Source: a virus
IMG/VR virus record: IMGVR_UViG_3300006738_000004
Location: 36,936 to 100,935 of that record
DNA: 64,000 bases
Strand: one strand, 5' to 3'
Shown: piece after piece, positions 1,568-63,378 of the stretch
Numbering within the stretch: position 1 is the first letter of the stretch
Layout: every line of letters starts with the position of its first letter
Position numbers and translations under genes: made by a program
Notes under the pieces: generated by a model
Told to the model about the DNA's origin: nothing
Databases searched by the model: none
What the model saw: only the letters and a program-made list of their open reading frames with translations

Positions 1568-1611
1568 TTACCCACACTCCGACGAGTTATTACCCACACT
1601 CCGACGAGTTA
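1568..1611. repeat. perfect 22-bp tandem duplication TTACCCACACTCCGACGAGTTA x2
   Basis: Copies at 1568-1589 and 1590-1611 are identical. Confidence 0.95.
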
Positions 1612-1617
1612 GACCCC
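1591..1617 (-). promoter_or_regulatory. class C promoter-like motif GGGGTC-N16-GGGTA
   Basis: On the - strand upstream of the 1514 gene; same boxes and spacing as the copies at 40685 and 58292. Confidence 0.55.
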
Positions 1618-2046
1618 TTCAAGCCATGACAGGTCTAAAGACCACTGCTCTTGGGAGCGTCGTGCCCACACCGCAAAACTCTCTTCGACATACTCCAAGG
1701 CGTCGTGGGCGTCCCAGCCATTTATCCCCATCAGGTGTTCGATGGCTTTGTCAGCACGGCCTATAACCTGGGCACGGCCAATGTGCTTCACCTCATGACA
1801 ACGAGGACACAGGGCAATCAGCCCCAACAGCTTCTGGGTCTTGGTTTCCTCGTCGTAGTGCCATCTCTCGTGGCACTCCACGGGCCACTTGGGTCCTTTG
1901 CCTCCGCAAATCTCACAGCGGTATTGTGCTGCCTTGTAGGTAGCCTTGCGTAGACGGTCCCATTCAGCCCTCGGAAGCTCTGACCGAAGGTTGGCTCCCC
2001 ACTGGCCTTTAGGCACAAGCTCAATCGTGAGGTACGGCTTCTTCAT
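1609..2046 (-). CDS. HNH-family endonuclease
   Basis: CEICG...ECHERW...LCPRCHEVKH zinc/HNH pattern; likely start ATG 2046 (MKKPYLTIELVP). Confidence 0.8.
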   Translation of the reverse strand: MKKPYLTIELVPKGQWGANLRSELPRAEWDRLRKATYKAAQYRCEICGGKGPKWPVECHERWHYDEETKTQKLLGLIALCPRCHEVKHIGRAQVIGRADKAIEHLMGINGWDAHDALEYVEESFAVWARRSQEQWSLDLSWLEGV

Positions 2047-2245
2047 CTTCCCAATCTGCCAACCCTGCCGCGATAGCGTCTTTACCACCTTGGCGAGCAG
2101 CGCGTTCAGCGGTGCGAGCCTCCGCAGCCATAGCACCGCGAGACATATGAGTACCAAACTGACGAGAATGACCCACTCGACCGCGAGAGCGAGGGATGAA
2201 GCGTTTCGATCCGTCCTTCCAAGATTTACATGCTTGCGAAGCCAT
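2021..2245 (-). CDS. hypothetical protein
   Basis: AGGAGG RBS; first gene after the class A motif at 2266-2293. Confidence 0.65.
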   Translation of the reverse strand: MASQACKSWKDGSKRFIPRSRGRVGHSRQFGTHMSRGAMAAEARTAERAARQGGKDAIAAGLADWEDEEAVPHD

Positions 2246-2265
2246 GGCTCCTCCTATGCACTCTA

Positions 2266-2293
2266 TACGGGGCCTGGAAACAGAGGGAACCCC
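2266..2293 (-). promoter_or_regulatory. class A promoter-like motif GGGGTTC-N16-CCGTA
   Basis: - strand GGGGTTC CCTCTGTTTCCAGGCC CCGTA, 20 nt before ATG 2245. Confidence 0.75.
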
Positions 2294-2306
2294 CTAAACC
2301 TTGACC

Positions 2307-2321
2307 CGGTGCCTTGCCTAT
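2307..2321 (+). promoter_or_regulatory. class B (late-type) motif CGGT-N7-CTAT
   Basis: CGGT gccttgc CTAT upstream of structural gene 2359. Confidence 0.7.
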
Positions 2322-2358
2322 GCCTCCAGGGCGGTAGGGTCCTCCTGGAGACTTCTTG

Positions 2359-3144
2359 ATGGCGGCACGAATCCGAAGTTGGCTGAACGCGGACCACGCG
2401 ACTGACGTGGACGAGCAGAGCCGTGACGACCTCTCTTTTGCAGGGGCGGGTGACAACGTCTACGTCAGTTCCATCGACGCAGCTTCCACCTATGCGTGGA
2501 CCATTGTGTTCGCCCCTGAGGGGTCTGGCGCTACGTTTTCGCTTAGCTCAGCCGACCCTTCTCCAGGGTTCTTCAACTGCGATGAGCCAGGGGCATACCT
2601 GATTCGGCTGGTCGTGGATGCAGGCCAGCCAACCGAGAGCACCCAGTACGTCAGGCTTCGTGCTTTGACTACGGTGGCCGCCCTGAAACTCGTCGCCGCA
2701 GGCGAGCGCCGTGACACCTCTGGAATCATTCCGGTCGATGTCGATGTCGAGGGCTGGGCCAATGAGCAGAACTACAACCTCACCCAGCTTGAGCAACTGA
2801 TTCCGATAGGAACCGTTGAATCCGTTGCGAGCACATTCCAGTGGAACTCGGCCTCCCCGGTACAGGTCACAAACCTCATCGCTGCGGATGCTGTCTTGGA
2901 GCTTTGGCTGAAGTTCGACACCGCATTTCTGGATGCTGCTTCCACGGTTTCAGTGGGCACCGATTTGGACCTCGAAAAGTACCTCCCCATCGTGGATGTC
3001 GATGTCACCAACACGGTCTACACGCTGGCCTACTCTCCAGGGGATGTTCTTACGGCAAATCAATCTCTCCAGGTGAGCGTCATCCCTGGAGGCGCGGAGA
3101 CACAAGGCTCCGGGACACTCCTGGCCTTGATCCGTCGAGGATAG
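2359..3144 (+). CDS. virion structural protein, PKD/Ig-like N-domain plus C-terminal beta-sandwich
   Basis: TYAWTIVFAPEGS...GAYLIRLVVD is PKD-like; N-domain is paralogous to that of 3938-6760. Confidence 0.6.
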   Translation: MAARIRSWLNADHATDVDEQSRDDLSFAGAGDNVYVSSIDAASTYAWTIVFAPEGSGATFSLSSADPSPGFFNCDEPGAYLIRLVVDAGQPTESTQYVRLRALTTVAALKLVAAGERRDTSGIIPVDVDVEGWANEQNYNLTQLEQLIPIGTVESVASTFQWNSASPVQVTNLIAADAVLELWLKFDTAFLDAASTVSVGTDLDLEKYLPIVDVDVTNTVYTLAYSPGDVLTANQSLQVSVIPGGAETQGSGTLLALIRRG

Positions 3145-3147
3145 TTC

Positions 3148-61362: not shown

Positions 61363-61367
61363 GAGAA

Positions 61368-61780
61368 CACAGAGGGCTTCCCCTTCATCCCACGGGGTGG
61401 AGAACAGTCCTCAAGCCTCCCCCGGCTCTAAGCGGGTTCGGTCTCTGCCGACCCTAAACGCAGCACCCTCTCACTGGTGTAAAAAGGGAGCGCCTTCTCC
61501 CTGGTGTGAAACGGAGCGTGAGCCTACCGGACGTTATACCGGAGGCGTAGCCGACTACGTTAGTGTTGGGGTTCCAACCCACCTTACGGGGGCGTGTGAC
61601 CACGGGCGATACCGGGGGGTTCCAACCCACCTTACGGGGGCGCGGCTGCGAAATGCGAGAAGACGCAGGGGTTGGCCTCCCTTATCGGGCCACCCACTTT
61701 CATTTACCCTTCCACAGCGCCGTTAGAGTCGGTGACCAGGGGATAGGCAACCCCGTTGAGTTGTGGGAGGGTTCCCTTCA
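61368..61780 (+). ncRNA. putative structured ncRNA containing 27-bp direct repeats
   Basis: Downstream of a class A motif; many stems, including 13-bp 61706-61718/61760-61772 with two G-U pairs on the + strand. Confidence 0.45.
61568..61642. repeat. two identical 27-bp direct repeats GGGGTTCCAACCCACCTTACGGGGGCG separated by 21 bp
   Basis: 61568-61594 and 61616-61642; a degenerate third copy near 61668. Confidence 0.9.
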
Positions 61781-61794
61781 AATGGCGGGAATGG

Positions 61795-61822
61795 GGGGTT
61801 CCCCTTTTCCTCTTCGCCCGTA
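61795..61822 (+). promoter_or_regulatory. class A motif
   Basis: GGGGTTC CCCTTTTCCTCTTCGC CCGTA; no CDS downstream. Confidence 0.7.
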
Positions 61823-61827
61823 GAGAG

Positions 61828-62037
61828 ACTAAGCCCACGATAGTGCCCGGTGACTTACCTTCTTCAAGACCGGATTCAGGCTTCGTGTAAGAAGGCGGTC
61901 CACGCGACACAGTGGAACGGCCCCCAGTAGGCCCGACGTTGCCGACGTTGCAGCGAGGCCAAACAGGGTTGCAGGTGCTGCAAAGCCCCCTCTCCTAAAG
62001 CCCCGTTGATCTGGACGGCACAAGGGAGGTGGTTTCG
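61828..62037 (+). ncRNA. putative structured ncRNA (~200 nt), convergent with the glutamine synthetase gene
   Basis: Class A motif upstream; stems CCTTCTT/AAGAAGG and TTGCAGC/GCTGCAA. Confidence 0.4.
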
Positions 62038-63126
62038 TTATTCAGGCGCGTGCAGCGGCGAGTTACCGGGAGTGGACGGGTCTGTGAAGTCGAAATGGGT
62101 TGTCTTCTCTGAAGCCAACTTGGCGGTCTTCAGCATCTCCAACGCTACCTCGTAGGGGCAAGCGTTGGCGTTAGGGCGTCGATCTTCCAGGTAGCCATAG
62201 CCATCCTTGGCTGTTCCTATCGGGATGCGGATGGAGGCCGTGCGGTCGCTGACGCCGTACCGGAACTCGTTGTGGGAACAGGTCTCGTGCTTCCCGGTCA
62301 AACGCATCTCGATGCCATCCCCGTACACAGCGAGATGAGCAGCCCTACGCTCCGGGGTTCCAGCGGCTTCGCACCATGCTTTGATGTGCTCCATGCCTCC
62401 TTCTTCACGCATTGCTGCGGTGGAGAAGTTGGTGTGCATCCCACTCCCGTTCCAATCACCGGGAACGGGCTTCGGATCGAGCGTGGCGTTGATGCCATGG
62501 TCTTCGCCCAGGCGGTACAGCAGCCAGCGGGCAAACCAGAGATGGTCTCCTGCTTCAAGGGCAGTGCAAGGACCGATTTGGAACTCCCATTGACCCGGCA
62601 TCACCTCAGCGTTGATGCCGCTGATCTTCAGCCCTGCCTCAAAGCAAGCCTGGAGATGGTCCTCGATAAGCTCCCGTCCGTACACTTGGTCGGCACCGGC
62701 ACCGCAATAGTACGGGCCTTGGGCAGGTGGAAATCGTCTGTCCTCCCCGAAACCGAGAGGTCGTGCCCCGTCAAAGAGGACATGCTCCTGCTCCATGCCA
62801 AACCACGCATCCGTGAACCCCTCTGCTTCCAGGAAATCGCGCACCGCAGCCCGCTTGTTGGTGGGGTGGGGGGTGACACCATCAGCCTCGTAGACTTCGC
62901 ACAAGGCGAGGAAGTGGCCCCTGCCTCGAACGGGGTCAATGACGATCCGCACGGGCTTCAGGATGCAGTCTGAAGAGTCTCCACTGGCTTGCCCTGTGGA
63001 ACTTCCATCGAAGTTCCAGTCAGGGAAGGTCATTTCTTCCCCCTCCGGTTCGGCCAGCACCTTGGTTTTTCCACGGATGGTGCGTGTTGGGAAGGTGCCG
63101 TCAGGCCATAGGTAAGTGACAAACAT
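62038..63126 (-). CDS. glnII: glutamine synthetase type II (auxiliary metabolic gene)
   Basis: WNFDGSSTGQA, WFGMEQE, QGPYYCG, INAEVMPGQWEFQIGP, DWNGSGMHTNFST, YLEDRRP; ~360 aa; GGAG RBS before ATG 63126. Confidence 0.92.
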   Translation of the reverse strand: MFVTYLWPDGTFPTRTIRGKTKVLAEPEGEEMTFPDWNFDGSSTGQASGDSSDCILKPVRIVIDPVRGRGHFLALCEVYEADGVTPHPTNKRAAVRDFLEAEGFTDAWFGMEQEHVLFDGARPLGFGEDRRFPPAQGPYYCGAGADQVYGRELIEDHLQACFEAGLKISGINAEVMPGQWEFQIGPCTALEAGDHLWFARWLLYRLGEDHGINATLDPKPVPGDWNGSGMHTNFSTAAMREEGGMEHIKAWCEAAGTPERRAAHLAVYGDGIEMRLTGKHETCSHNEFRYGVSDRTASIRIPIGTAKDGYGYLEDRRPNANACPYEVALEMLKTAKLASEKTTHFDFTDPSTPGNSPLHAPE

Positions 63127-63151
63127 GCTCGCTCCAGGTGGTTTACGCCGT

Positions 63152-63337
63152 CTAACCAGCGTACCCATCTTCAGCCCAGCCCCCGCCTTTCAAAGCAAAG
63201 GAGGTCTGAGAGATCATCTTCTTACAGTTCTTGGAGTCGCATTCGGGGCAACTCTGGGGGTTTTCACGCTCGTCGTGCTTCAGGAGCCTCTCGAACCTCT
63301 TCTCGCATTTCTCGCATCGGTACTCGAACAGAGGCAT
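63152..63337 (-). CDS. FmdB-family zinc-ribbon protein
   Basis: MPLFEYRCEKC...CPEC...KKMIS.TSFALKGGGW..DGY; AAGGAGG RBS. Confidence 0.88.
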   Translation of the reverse strand: MPLFEYRCEKCEKRFERLLKHDERENPQSCPECDSKNCKKMISQTSFALKGGGWAEDGYAG

Positions 63338-63363
63338 GGATCCCCTCCTTGCTTCCACAATAC

Positions 63364-63378
63364 CGATAAGGTGCCTAT
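63364..63378 (+). promoter_or_regulatory. class B motif
   Basis: CGAT aaggtgc CTAT upstream of 63403. Confidence 0.65.

Follow-up and report, generated by a model that had tools for sequence, protein, structure and literature searches.

Three candidate promoter classes and a putative ECF-like sigma factor in a clade of uncultured huge phages

We analysed a 64,000-nt stretch of viral DNA (the window), which comprises bases 36936-100935 of the 100,935-bp IMG/VR virus record IMGVR_UViG_3300006738_000004 (G000), from an uncultured marine huge phage, and we find that three short motifs, first noticed in a sequence-only reading of the window, recur in its intergenic gaps and in those of four related records (G001-G004). 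The evidence supports treating them as putative promoters: they are intergenic, oriented toward genes, and kept at orthologous sites whose spacers have diverged. The predicted class A promoter is GGGTTC-N16-CCGTA in this phage, with a clade-wide core, GTT-N17/18-CCGTA, and lineage-specific flanks of the −35 box; the predicted class B promoter is a compact CGGT(AG)-N5-CTAT element that lacks a −35 box; and the predicted class C promoter is GGGGGTC-N16/17-GGGTA, its −10 box being GGGTA(T/C). We favour, with moderate confidence, the reading that these are three promoter classes of a huge-phage clade which use the host core RNA polymerase (RNAP) and take their specificity from phage factors, and that a sigma factor resembling those of the extracytoplasmic function (ECF) group reads at least one of them. 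The motif observation is confirmed and extended to the clade, and its original interpretation, a cascade run by two related alternative sigma factors and a distinct late factor, is partly supported. Literature searches, which did not cover supplements that possibly hold huge-phage promoter lists, returned no description of these motifs.

The motifs exceed chance expectation in the window. Class A in the form GGGGTTC-N16-CCGTA has eight exact copies against 0.00 expected (100 shuffles), and all eight exact sites of the G000 record fall in the part that the window covers; the ninth copy originally counted, at 54211 (−), fits only the shorter GGGTTC-N17-CGTA, with an A before GGGTTC. For class B, the exact form CGRT-N7-CTAT occurs 11 times, compared with an expectation of 1.09 and a maximum of 5 in any shuffle. 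Ten of these copies are intergenic plus-strand sites at the places first listed; the eleventh, at 12034 (−), lies within a gene and is probably a chance match. Two more copies have one mismatch. The written class C pattern gives six matches, or five distinct sites, against 0.08 expected. Four of the five class C copies originally claimed (40685, 45209, 55384/5 and 58292) stand; the one at 1591 lies on the minus strand and has GGGGTC, one G short, and a site at 49540 that fits the written pattern was absent from the first list.

Intergenic DNA makes up 7.2% of G000 and 7-14% of each of the five records, and the short forms of the motifs fall within it at 9 of 9 class A, 8 of 9 class B and 4 of 5 class C sites of the whole G000 record, the sole “internal” class C site, 49540, being kept in G003. 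Exact class B sites are intergenic at 8/9 places in G000, 19/21 in G003, 40/45 in G004, 27/29 in G002 and 11/12 in G001, and the reversed pattern that served as control totals 0, 2, 4, 1 and 1 matches in the same order; the corresponding figures for class C (GGGGGK-N17-19-GGTA) are 4/5, 12/16, 27/33, 12/18 and 6/7, with control totals of 1, 3, 15, 5 and 5; and the window's own form of class A is intergenic at 9/9 places in G000, 25/25 in G003 and 22/22 in G004, with 0 copies in G002 and G001. These fractions, and the count of units without a motif, are approximate, because the gene calls come from a crude codon-score caller that missed open reading frames (ORFs) such as 48290-48601 and 50593-50913; both are in the ORF list, are mostly alignable to G003 DNA and are probably genes.

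Most exact sites face the start of a gene on the same strand, with a median distance from −10 box to start codon of 22-28 nt for classes A and C and 42-51 nt for class B. A same-strand start lies no more than 150 nt downstream of the intergenic class B sites in 7/8 cases in G000, 16/19 in G003, 38/40 in G004, 23/27 in G002 and 11/11 in G001, and the distance from class B site to start codon varies (9-294 nt in G003). In G000 as in its relatives, the motifs are mainly intergenic and gene-facing. The claim that most gaps starting a transcription unit carry one of them holds for 20 of the 33 candidate unit starts in the window (14 exact, six with one mismatch); the rest are taken up below.

The boxes of classes A and C co-vary, as the sequence-only reading had noted: among the intergenic sites of G000 and G003 there are 42 GGGTTC+CGTA pairs, 11 GGGGTC+GGTA pairs and five hybrids (Fisher p = 1e-7, the orthologous sites not being independent of one another), and G000 alone gives 9/0/0/4 (p = 0.0014). 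Spacing is identical in 41 of the 42 GGGTTC..CGTA sites, and the class C spacer is 16-18 nt. Two boxes at a near-fixed distance of ~16-18 nt, the arrangement by which sigma70-family promoters are recognised, are found in classes A and C and not in class B, whose boxes lie 7 nt apart.

The four related records, G001-G004, keep the motifs. G000 and G003 are collinear, with protein identities of 33-88%, and alignments of their orthologous gaps show boxes of all three classes kept and spacers and flanks changed: in the gap at window position 54547 the two records agree in both class A boxes but differ at roughly half of the positions in the spacer, and the one-mismatch class B copies at 19179 and 39219 are both conserved in G003. 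A joint A/C pattern has 38 matches in G003 against 3 for its reversed control. The other records carry A-like forms of their own, with ~18 copies of a T-tract, CGTTAAAA, N15 and TCCGTAAGTA in G002, ~7 copies of GGTTGGAGC-N13-CCGT(A/C) in G001 and ~28 copies of GGGGGGTTCAACTC..TATCTCCGTATAG in G004; GTT-N17/18-CCGTA is common to all three, and the flanks differ. Class C and class B sites recur before particular genes. A C-type site precedes the SNF2 helicase gene in 4/4 records (G000, G003, G002 and G001); one is clear before the gene for PolA (family A DNA polymerase) in three records, the −10 box in G002 being weaker (GGTAC); and for the gene of a 167-aa protein such a site stands upstream in G000, G003 and G002, with none apparent in G001. 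Class B sites precede the baseplate genes and the genes for a 1802-aa and a 124-aa protein in G000, G003, G002 and G001, and the gene for a 1134-aa protein in G000, G003 and G002. Beyond these relatives, class B was compared with its control in five huge-phage records of 400-620 kb; it is moderately enriched in four (21 vs 6, 25 vs 11, 20 vs 8 and 17 vs 8) and not in the fifth (16 vs 18).

The original claim that the three motifs sort genes by function proved too strong as worded, although its outline is recognisable: class C precedes replication genes, class A accessory genes, and class B baseplate and giant genes. The SNF2 helicase, DnaB, primase and PolA genes follow class C sites, as had been claimed for a helicase operon and a polymerase. 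The assignment of class A to accessory genes and ORF-free loci was likewise borne out, with RNase T-like exonuclease and metallophosphatase genes among its targets and ORF-free DNA facing three of its sites in the window; in G003, genes assigned to class A include those for a class I (Trp/Tyr-type) aminoacyl-tRNA synthetase, a thymidine kinase, a DNA methylase and a VWA/CobT-like protein, together with many small genes. For class B, the claimed link to virion and lysis-type genes stands for the baseplate genes and the giant-gene operons and, in G003, for gene(s) matching peptidoglycan-binding and peptidase families; it does not extend to the small non-structural genes that class B also precedes, namely those for cold-shock-domain and 2H-like proteins in the window and SET, SprT and methylase proteins in G003. 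For most of the large “virion” proteins no family was matched, and the RNase T-like gene switches class, from A in G000 and G003 to C-type in G001 and G002. The class-wise Pfam assignments of G003 include units behind one-mismatch sites and cover 32/34 class A and 34/35 class B proteins at positions 1-98000, the others crossing locus borders.

The sequence-only reading had expected the factors to be encoded outside the window, and G000 itself has no sigma domain. One ORF of ~305 aa in each of G001, G002 and G003 gives a weak Sigma70_r2 match (14-15 bits against a cut-off of 24), and the best such matches across records reach 12-19 bits against the same cut-off. The gene is present in a single copy per record, is partial in the 485-kb uncultured phage LR745208.1 and is missing from the G000 fragment. 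Within a family of 42 members, Sigma70_r2 matches 28 at E <= 0.1 (best 5e-5), Sigma70_ECF three and Sigma70_r4_2 two; the profile of the 42 members aligns, at E = 2.2e-4, with 3mzy, a sigma-H chain of solved structure, over a stretch that starts at the end of region 2 and takes in region 4; and all named language-model neighbours of the protein are sigma70/ECF clusters (0.96-0.97). The protein has a conserved N-terminal domain of ~130 aa followed by predicted regions 2 and 4. It has 391 homologs, many on long contigs, of which at least nine, among the 120 matches listed, are named sigma24 by JGI, and a search of 185,579 species genomes gave three matches, all on short contigs of metagenome-assembled genomes; the family is essentially phage-only. 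Taken together, these matches point to a putative divergent, phage-specific ECF-like sigma factor.

Synteny with G003 places this gene ~2-3 kb past the right end of the window: the G003 gene lies at 79552-80472, and the last gene of the window matches G003 82188-83408, so that the earlier expectation of a sigma gene outside the window is upheld for one divergent factor found in the relatives. A protein 81% identical to the G003 sigma (P0002), encoded on a 30-kb contig, may be the window phage's own copy. The sigma gene is itself preceded by a class C-type site (G5-6T-N17/18-GGTA) in six of the seven loci that encode a sigma with 50% or more identity to that of G003, two of the six being identical upstream. 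What was not borne out is the prediction of a pair of related sigma factors and a separate late one: G001-G004 each have one sigma-like gene, and of four records rated 92-100% complete two have this region-2 match only, the other two (G008 and G012) having one further weak match; one such further weak match is also shown by G009 (76% complete) and by G004 (67% complete).

Small proteins made up solely of sigma region-4 helix-turn-helix (HTH) domains occur in G002, G004 and LR745208.1, and the G000 and G003 fragments have no homolog of them. They lie at 175750-175983 in G002 and at ~271,740-272,350 in G004 (two matches, best E = 6e-10), in each case directly before a class B site, CGGTAGTGCG(A/T)CTAT.

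The search for sigma factors and polymerase subunits that had been proposed as a check thus yielded one sigma-like gene per relative, none in G000, and no RNAP beta family: RNA_pol_Rpb2_6 was matched in 0/2 and 0/6 records, four of the six being 92-100% complete. T7-like RNA_pol (PF00940) was matched in 0/5 records, a weak blank, because the search was silent in every control genome too; Sigma54_DBD was matched in 0/5 records, and the phage records yielded no group 3 sigma. Sites of the sigma70 type (TTGACA-N17-TATAAT) are scarce, with one in window positions 44001-64000 against 5.4 expected, and four scoring at least 10/12, one of them intergenic, in 852 kb of five records, which bears out the earlier remark that the motifs are unlike sigma70 promoters. 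As there is no phage RNAP among these matches and there are no sigma70-type promoters in the DNA examined, the host core polymerase must, on the reading that we favour, be redirected by phage factors.

We propose the following scheme. Classes A and C have the −35/−10 geometry of alternative sigma factors, and at least one class would be read by the divergent phage-specific ECF-like sigma. Class C would drive the replication genes and the sigma gene, in which case the sigma may activate its own class C promoter, or class C may first be read by something present at infection; a class C site behind which the sigma gene stands could accordingly mean either ECF-style autoregulation, class C being the regulon of the sigma, or a class C cascade that supplies the factor for a later class. 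Class A would drive small accessory genes and ORF-free loci, and class B, found at the head of the baseplate operon and of those with giant genes, would be late. The order A early, C middle and B late is suggested by gene content alone; promoter identity, temporal order and the assignment of factors to classes are all inferred. What the analysis shows are the motifs with their placement and conservation, the sigma-like family and, in the DNA examined, a lack of matches to a phage polymerase and of sigma70-type promoters.

Several observations weigh against this scheme. The sigma matches fall under the Pfam cut-off for every member of the family; G001-G004 each have one sigma-like gene only, facing three promoter classes; and the sigma gene of G003 itself has just a weak C-like site. 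The predicted region-4 recognition helix differs by one residue between the sigmas of G001 and G002, and their class A flanks differ, which disfavours the sigma as reader of the lineage-specific part of class A. For the same reason the idea that sigma region 4 co-varies with the class A −35 box was rejected as stated, the shared GTT core remaining. The boxes of class B, 7 nt apart, are unfit for recognition by region 2 and region 4. Five of the intergenic A/C sites in G000 and G003 are hybrids, and 13 of the 33 candidate unit starts in the window are motif-free, some of them being doubtful ORFs or genes that the caller missed. LR745208.1, despite its partial sigma homolog, has no enrichment of A/C (11 vs 16 in the control) or of class B (8 vs 14).

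All three classes might instead be read by alternative sigma factors of the host, ECF factors for CGTA and SigB/SigF-like factors for GGGTA, with no phage factor involved. CGTA is the −10 element of the Bacillus subtilis sigma-W regulon in the part of PMC5758882 used here, and GGGTAT is a SigB-type −10 box in the corresponding part of PMC8346170; moreover, class A flanks vary between lineages with near-identical phage sigmas, as if set by the host, and T-tracts resembling UP elements lie upstream of the A-like sites of G001, G002 and G004. We nevertheless consider this unlikely. The −35 boxes are unlike the ECF GAAAC (sigma-W example) or the SigB GTTT, and class C has 16-17 nt between its boxes where SigB promoters have 12-14 nt in the excerpt of PMC8346170. 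Under such an arrangement the phage would need stress sigmas for every gene, a conserved phage-specific sigma present in every relative would still need targets, and classes B and C are kept across phages whose proteins are 40-60% identical.

A second explanation concerns class B: a late activator or repressor could bind there, or the element could act in the 5′ leader RNA as a processing or antitermination signal, and in either case the genuine late promoters would be weakly conserved. Its two boxes are one helical turn apart, as for a protein with two helix-turn-helices, nothing conserved lies upstream of it, its distance to the start codon is variable (as in G003, above), and the region-4-HTH-only proteins of G002 and G004 stand directly before class B sites. 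We hold this improbable: class B is the sole conserved element in many gaps that require a promoter (between divergent genes, and ahead of the 1802-aa and baseplate operons), its orientation follows the downstream gene strictly, and the variable spacer between its boxes makes no conserved RNA structure evident there.

A more far-reaching version of the favoured reading is that the clade runs a programme without any sigma70-type promoter, in which the first transcripts depend on a phage factor that enters with the DNA or on a host sigma other than the housekeeping one, and in which class B is a new compact promoter without a −35 box and with −24/−12-like geometry, read via a phage adaptor that has so far gone unrecognised; in G002 and G004 the tandem region-4 HTH proteins beside class B sites are candidates for it, and the conserved N-terminal domain of the sigma is another. 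We put this forward as speculative, and doubtful in the whole.

A further possibility is that a phage polymerase invisible to family searches reads class A or class B; its domain might be hidden in a giant virion-type protein, as in N4-like or crAss-like phages. The lack of sigma70-type early promoters would fit, as would the giant ORFs of 1802-3924 aa that match no family or PDB sequence, and class B ends in CTAT(A/G), which is loosely T7-promoter-like. As for hairpin-type, N4-like promoters, the G-run and the C-run of class A could pair, but class C has no such complement. We give the hidden polymerase little credence, since the two-box 16-17-nt geometry of classes A and C is typical of sigma factors and the giant proteins lie in late-type operons behind class B sites; no beta-subunit family was matched, and the T7-like family, itself a weak blank, was found in none of the five records. 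Finally, we find it scarcely credible that a repeated or mobile intergenic element, and not regulation, accounts for the motifs: the copies are many and some stand back-to-back, but the short boxes alone are common to them, with spacers and flanks differing from copy to copy, they are oriented to the downstream gene at a narrow distance, and their orthologous positions are kept across diverged genomes.

We now turn to the individual sites, for which reference is made throughout to the aligned gaps of G003 where these exist. Two class C sites of the window lead to genes of its replication module. The site at 40685..40712 (+) is ahead of the SNF2 helicase/DnaB/primase operon, with C-type sites before the ortholog in G003, G002 and G001, and that at 45209..45237 (+) lies 20 nt ahead of the family A DNA polymerase gene. 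The site at 49540..49567 (+) falls within the upstream ORF, at its 3′ end and 18 nt ahead of a 336-aa gene, and is kept at G003 97224 (−). At 55384..55412 (+), a site of the form GGGGGTTT..GGGTA is ahead of a 163-aa gene and overlaps a terminator-like hairpin, and at 58292..58319 (+) another is ahead of a 167-aa gene; both gaps were aligned with G003. The minus-strand GGGGTC-N16-GGGTA at 1591..1617 has its −10 box within a direct tandem repeat of ~22 bp (1570-1617, minus strand) that contains the class C GGGTA box twice.

Among the class A sites, all exact unless stated, that at 21529..21556 (−) lies 28 nt ahead of a 245-aa gene (20763-21500, −) and that at 39184..39211 (−) lies 25 nt ahead of a 174-aa gene (38634-39158, −) with a weak WGR-domain match, both gaps being aligned with G003. 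The site at 51597..51624 (+) stands 30 nt ahead of a 415-aa gene, its G003 ortholog reading GGGTTC..ACGTA; that at 54548..54575 (+) stands 20 nt ahead of the metallophosphatase gene and shows a footprint with a diverged spacer; and the short-form GGGTTC-N17-CGTA site at 54211..54237 (−) is ahead of the RNase T-like exonuclease gene. At 2266..2293 (−) the site is back-to-back with the class B site at 2307, and in its G003 counterpart at 145631 (+) the boxes are kept and the spacer has diverged.

The three remaining class A sites face ORF-free DNA. The site at 20018..20045 (−), with an ortholog at G003 127872 (+), faces the locus 19740-20017, part of which is conserved in G003 (81.5% over 119 nt). 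The site at 61335..61362 (+) faces an ORF-free locus whose gap in G003 also holds a class A site, at 85997 (−), and the site at 61795..61822 (+) is ahead of a highly conserved ORF-free stretch that ends at 62037. This stretch, 61660-62037, is 85% identical to G003 over 364 nt (blastn) and near-identical from ~61690, its neighbouring genes being much less conserved; it runs downstream of the site at 61795, head-on to the 3′ end of a glutamine-synthetase-like gene. Rfam has no match for it, and shuffled versions of the sequence fold just as stably (z = −0.16).

The intergenic class B sites are all on the plus strand in the window. The CGGT-N7-CTAT site at 2307..2321 is ahead of a 261-aa gene, and the exact site at 3148..3162 heads a block, 3234-19132, with 940-, 1413- and 1937-aa genes; both gaps were aligned with G003. 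A one-mismatch site, CGGT-N7-TTAT, at 19179..19193 precedes a 167-aa gene and is exact in its G003 ortholog at 128741, and a CGAT form at 20052..20066 precedes a 209-aa gene (G003 gap aligned). Two exact sites lead to the 1134-aa gene: a distal one at 21564..21578, back-to-back with the class A site at 21529, and one at 21800..21814, 48 nt ahead of the 1134-aa and 1981-aa genes (G003 gap aligned). The exact site at 33142..33156 is ahead of the 1802-aa gene, a class B site also preceding the ortholog in G003, G002 and G001, and the class B-like one-mismatch site GGGT-N7-CTAT at 39219..39233, ahead of a 273-aa gene, is identical in G003. Farther right, a CGAT form at 54241..54255, back-to-back with the class A site at 54211, precedes an 82-aa gene; the exact site at 55941..55955 precedes 245-aa and 453-aa genes; the exact site at 58852..58866 precedes the 124-aa gene and then others, including the cold-shock-domain gene, with class B before the ortholog in G003, G002 and G001; and a CGAT form at 63364..63378 is ahead of the last gene of the window (G003 gap aligned). 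Just upstream of the window, at −5163 relative to its start, a class B site precedes two genes that match PHROG baseplate families, these being the first two genes behind it.

Across these sites nothing is conserved upstream of the class B boxes. Class A on the minus strand and class B on the plus strand stand back-to-back in four divergent gaps (2266-2321, 20018-20066, 21529-21578 and 54211-54255) with varying spacing, and the same arrangement is seen in G003. We also considered whether all classes share an xxGTA −10 box, which in class B would be CGGTA(G), with CTAT at the transcription start; this fits G001, G002 and G004, but in G000 only 2/8 class B sites have an A after CGGT, and we set it aside as a lead only. 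Within the operon that class B would drive, a conserved long inverted repeat at 3807-3937, between 190-aa and 940-aa genes, could be a processing, attenuation or termination signal.

G000 is a fragment of a huge phage (CheckV completeness 22%, G+C 58%), and the final 64 kb of this fragment form the window. At least 20 runs contain contigs with near-identical DNA (17 marine metagenomes, one hydrothermal vent metagenome and two runs with coded organisms); of the 20 runs listed as holding DNA of window positions 53001-63000, 19 are marked “DNA?” and one is of unknown kind, none being recorded as RNA. The family A DNA polymerase of the window is 80% identical to that of G003 (a 180,576-bp record), ~60% identical to those of G002 (205,564 bp) and G001 (67,944 bp), and 49% identical to the PolA of LR745208.1; the G004 record has 297,104 bp, and the more distant relatives that carry the sigma-like gene are records of 400-620 kb, four of them rated 92-100% complete by CheckV.

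The first 39 kb of the window hold large ORFs in one direction, of up to 1981 aa and with almost no family matches. Proteins of 940-3924 aa have no Pfam, PHROG or PDB sequence match, save baseplate on two genes and one weak “minor head”, and the protein language-model Atlas returned nothing for the 1802-aa protein. After ~39 kb comes the replication module, with an SNF2 helicase, a DnaB-like helicase, a primase zinc ribbon and PolA, and past it lie small genes for the RNase T-like exonuclease, the metallophosphatase, a cold-shock-domain protein and a glutamine-synthetase-like protein. The last of these (62038-63126, −; Gln-synt_C and Gln-synt_N) belongs to a two-gene unit that is not preceded by any of the three motifs. 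In G003 the DnaB and primase genes are separated by 713 nt with a 220-aa ORF (102232-102944), and the window counterpart, 44641-44687, is 47 nt; the G003 ORF may be an inserted gene. G000 has no tRNA genes, and an Rfam search of the window returned no family that reached the gathering score.

Nearly all that is known of huge phages comes from metagenomes, and how they regulate their genes is uncharted. A promoter code spanning several genomes of 100-600 kb would allow their uncharacterised genes to be split, from sequence only, into transcription units and probable temporal classes, and would flag promoter-driven ORF-free loci as candidate non-coding RNAs. It also names a factor that can be tested, the phage-specific ECF-like sigma, and, if this sigma and its promoters work with foreign core polymerases, it could provide orthogonal expression parts. 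The apparent absence of sigma70-type promoters raises the question of how infection starts.

Among known regulators, class A is closest in form to the ECF sigma factors. Like the promoters of sigma-W of Bacillus subtilis, it has two boxes, a rigid spacer and a CGTA −10 box, and the candidate factor, like ECF factors, would have regions 2 and 4 only; the sigma-W promoter is, moreover, autoregulatory (this and the CGTA box of sigma-W are given in part of PMC5758882). It differs in that the class A −35 box is GGGTTC, with the core GTT, and not GAAAC as in the sigma-W example from that same excerpt, and in that the candidate carries an N-terminal domain of ~130 aa and stays below Pfam cut-offs. 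The likeness of class C to SigB/SigF, claimed at the outset for the GGGTAT box, goes as far as its −10 box, GGGTA(T/C): promoters of these group 3 sigmas have GTTTAA-N12-14-GGG(A/T)A(A/T), as quoted from part of PMC8346170, whereas class C has a GGGGGT(C) −35 box in place of GTTT and a spacer of 16-17 nt in place of 12-14 nt.

Class B resembles sigma54 promoters in layout only, as a hexamer with GG at positions 2-3, a gap of 5 nt, a tetramer and no −35 box. The sigma54 promoter has TGGCAC-N5-TTGC at −24/−12, with GG and GC dinucleotides ten bases apart; class B has the GG but is unlike it in having CTAT and not TTGC as its second box, and Sigma54_DBD is absent from the five records, as noted above. 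As a general rule, ECF −35 boxes contain AAC. The late promoter of T4 is TATAAATA, and the boxes described here differ from it.

As a whole, the system is closest to the phage sigma cascades that work on the host core RNAP, those of SPO1 (gp28, gp33/34), of T4 (gp55/gp33) and of the “group 2” jumbo phages. SPO1 passes from early to middle to late genes by a sigma switch, according to part of PMC13401047, and jumbo phages without a polymerase of their own encode sigma factors, according to part of PMC7824862. In SPO1 and T4, however, the early genes use host sigma-A/sigma70 promoters, and here there are none such across the 852 kb, save for one intergenic site scoring at least 10/12; the “group 2” jumbo phages, in the excerpt of PMC7824862, have a family B DNA polymerase, and the present phages a family A enzyme. 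Further differences from the known cascades are the distinct boxes, the compact class B, a divergent sigma with an added N-terminal domain, and one clear sigma-like gene for three classes. What the phages described here share with those cascades is the lack of a phage RNAP, a sigma-like protein, several promoter classes and the separation of replication from virion genes. We rate the theme of phage promoter cascades as known, and these motif classes as a variant of it.

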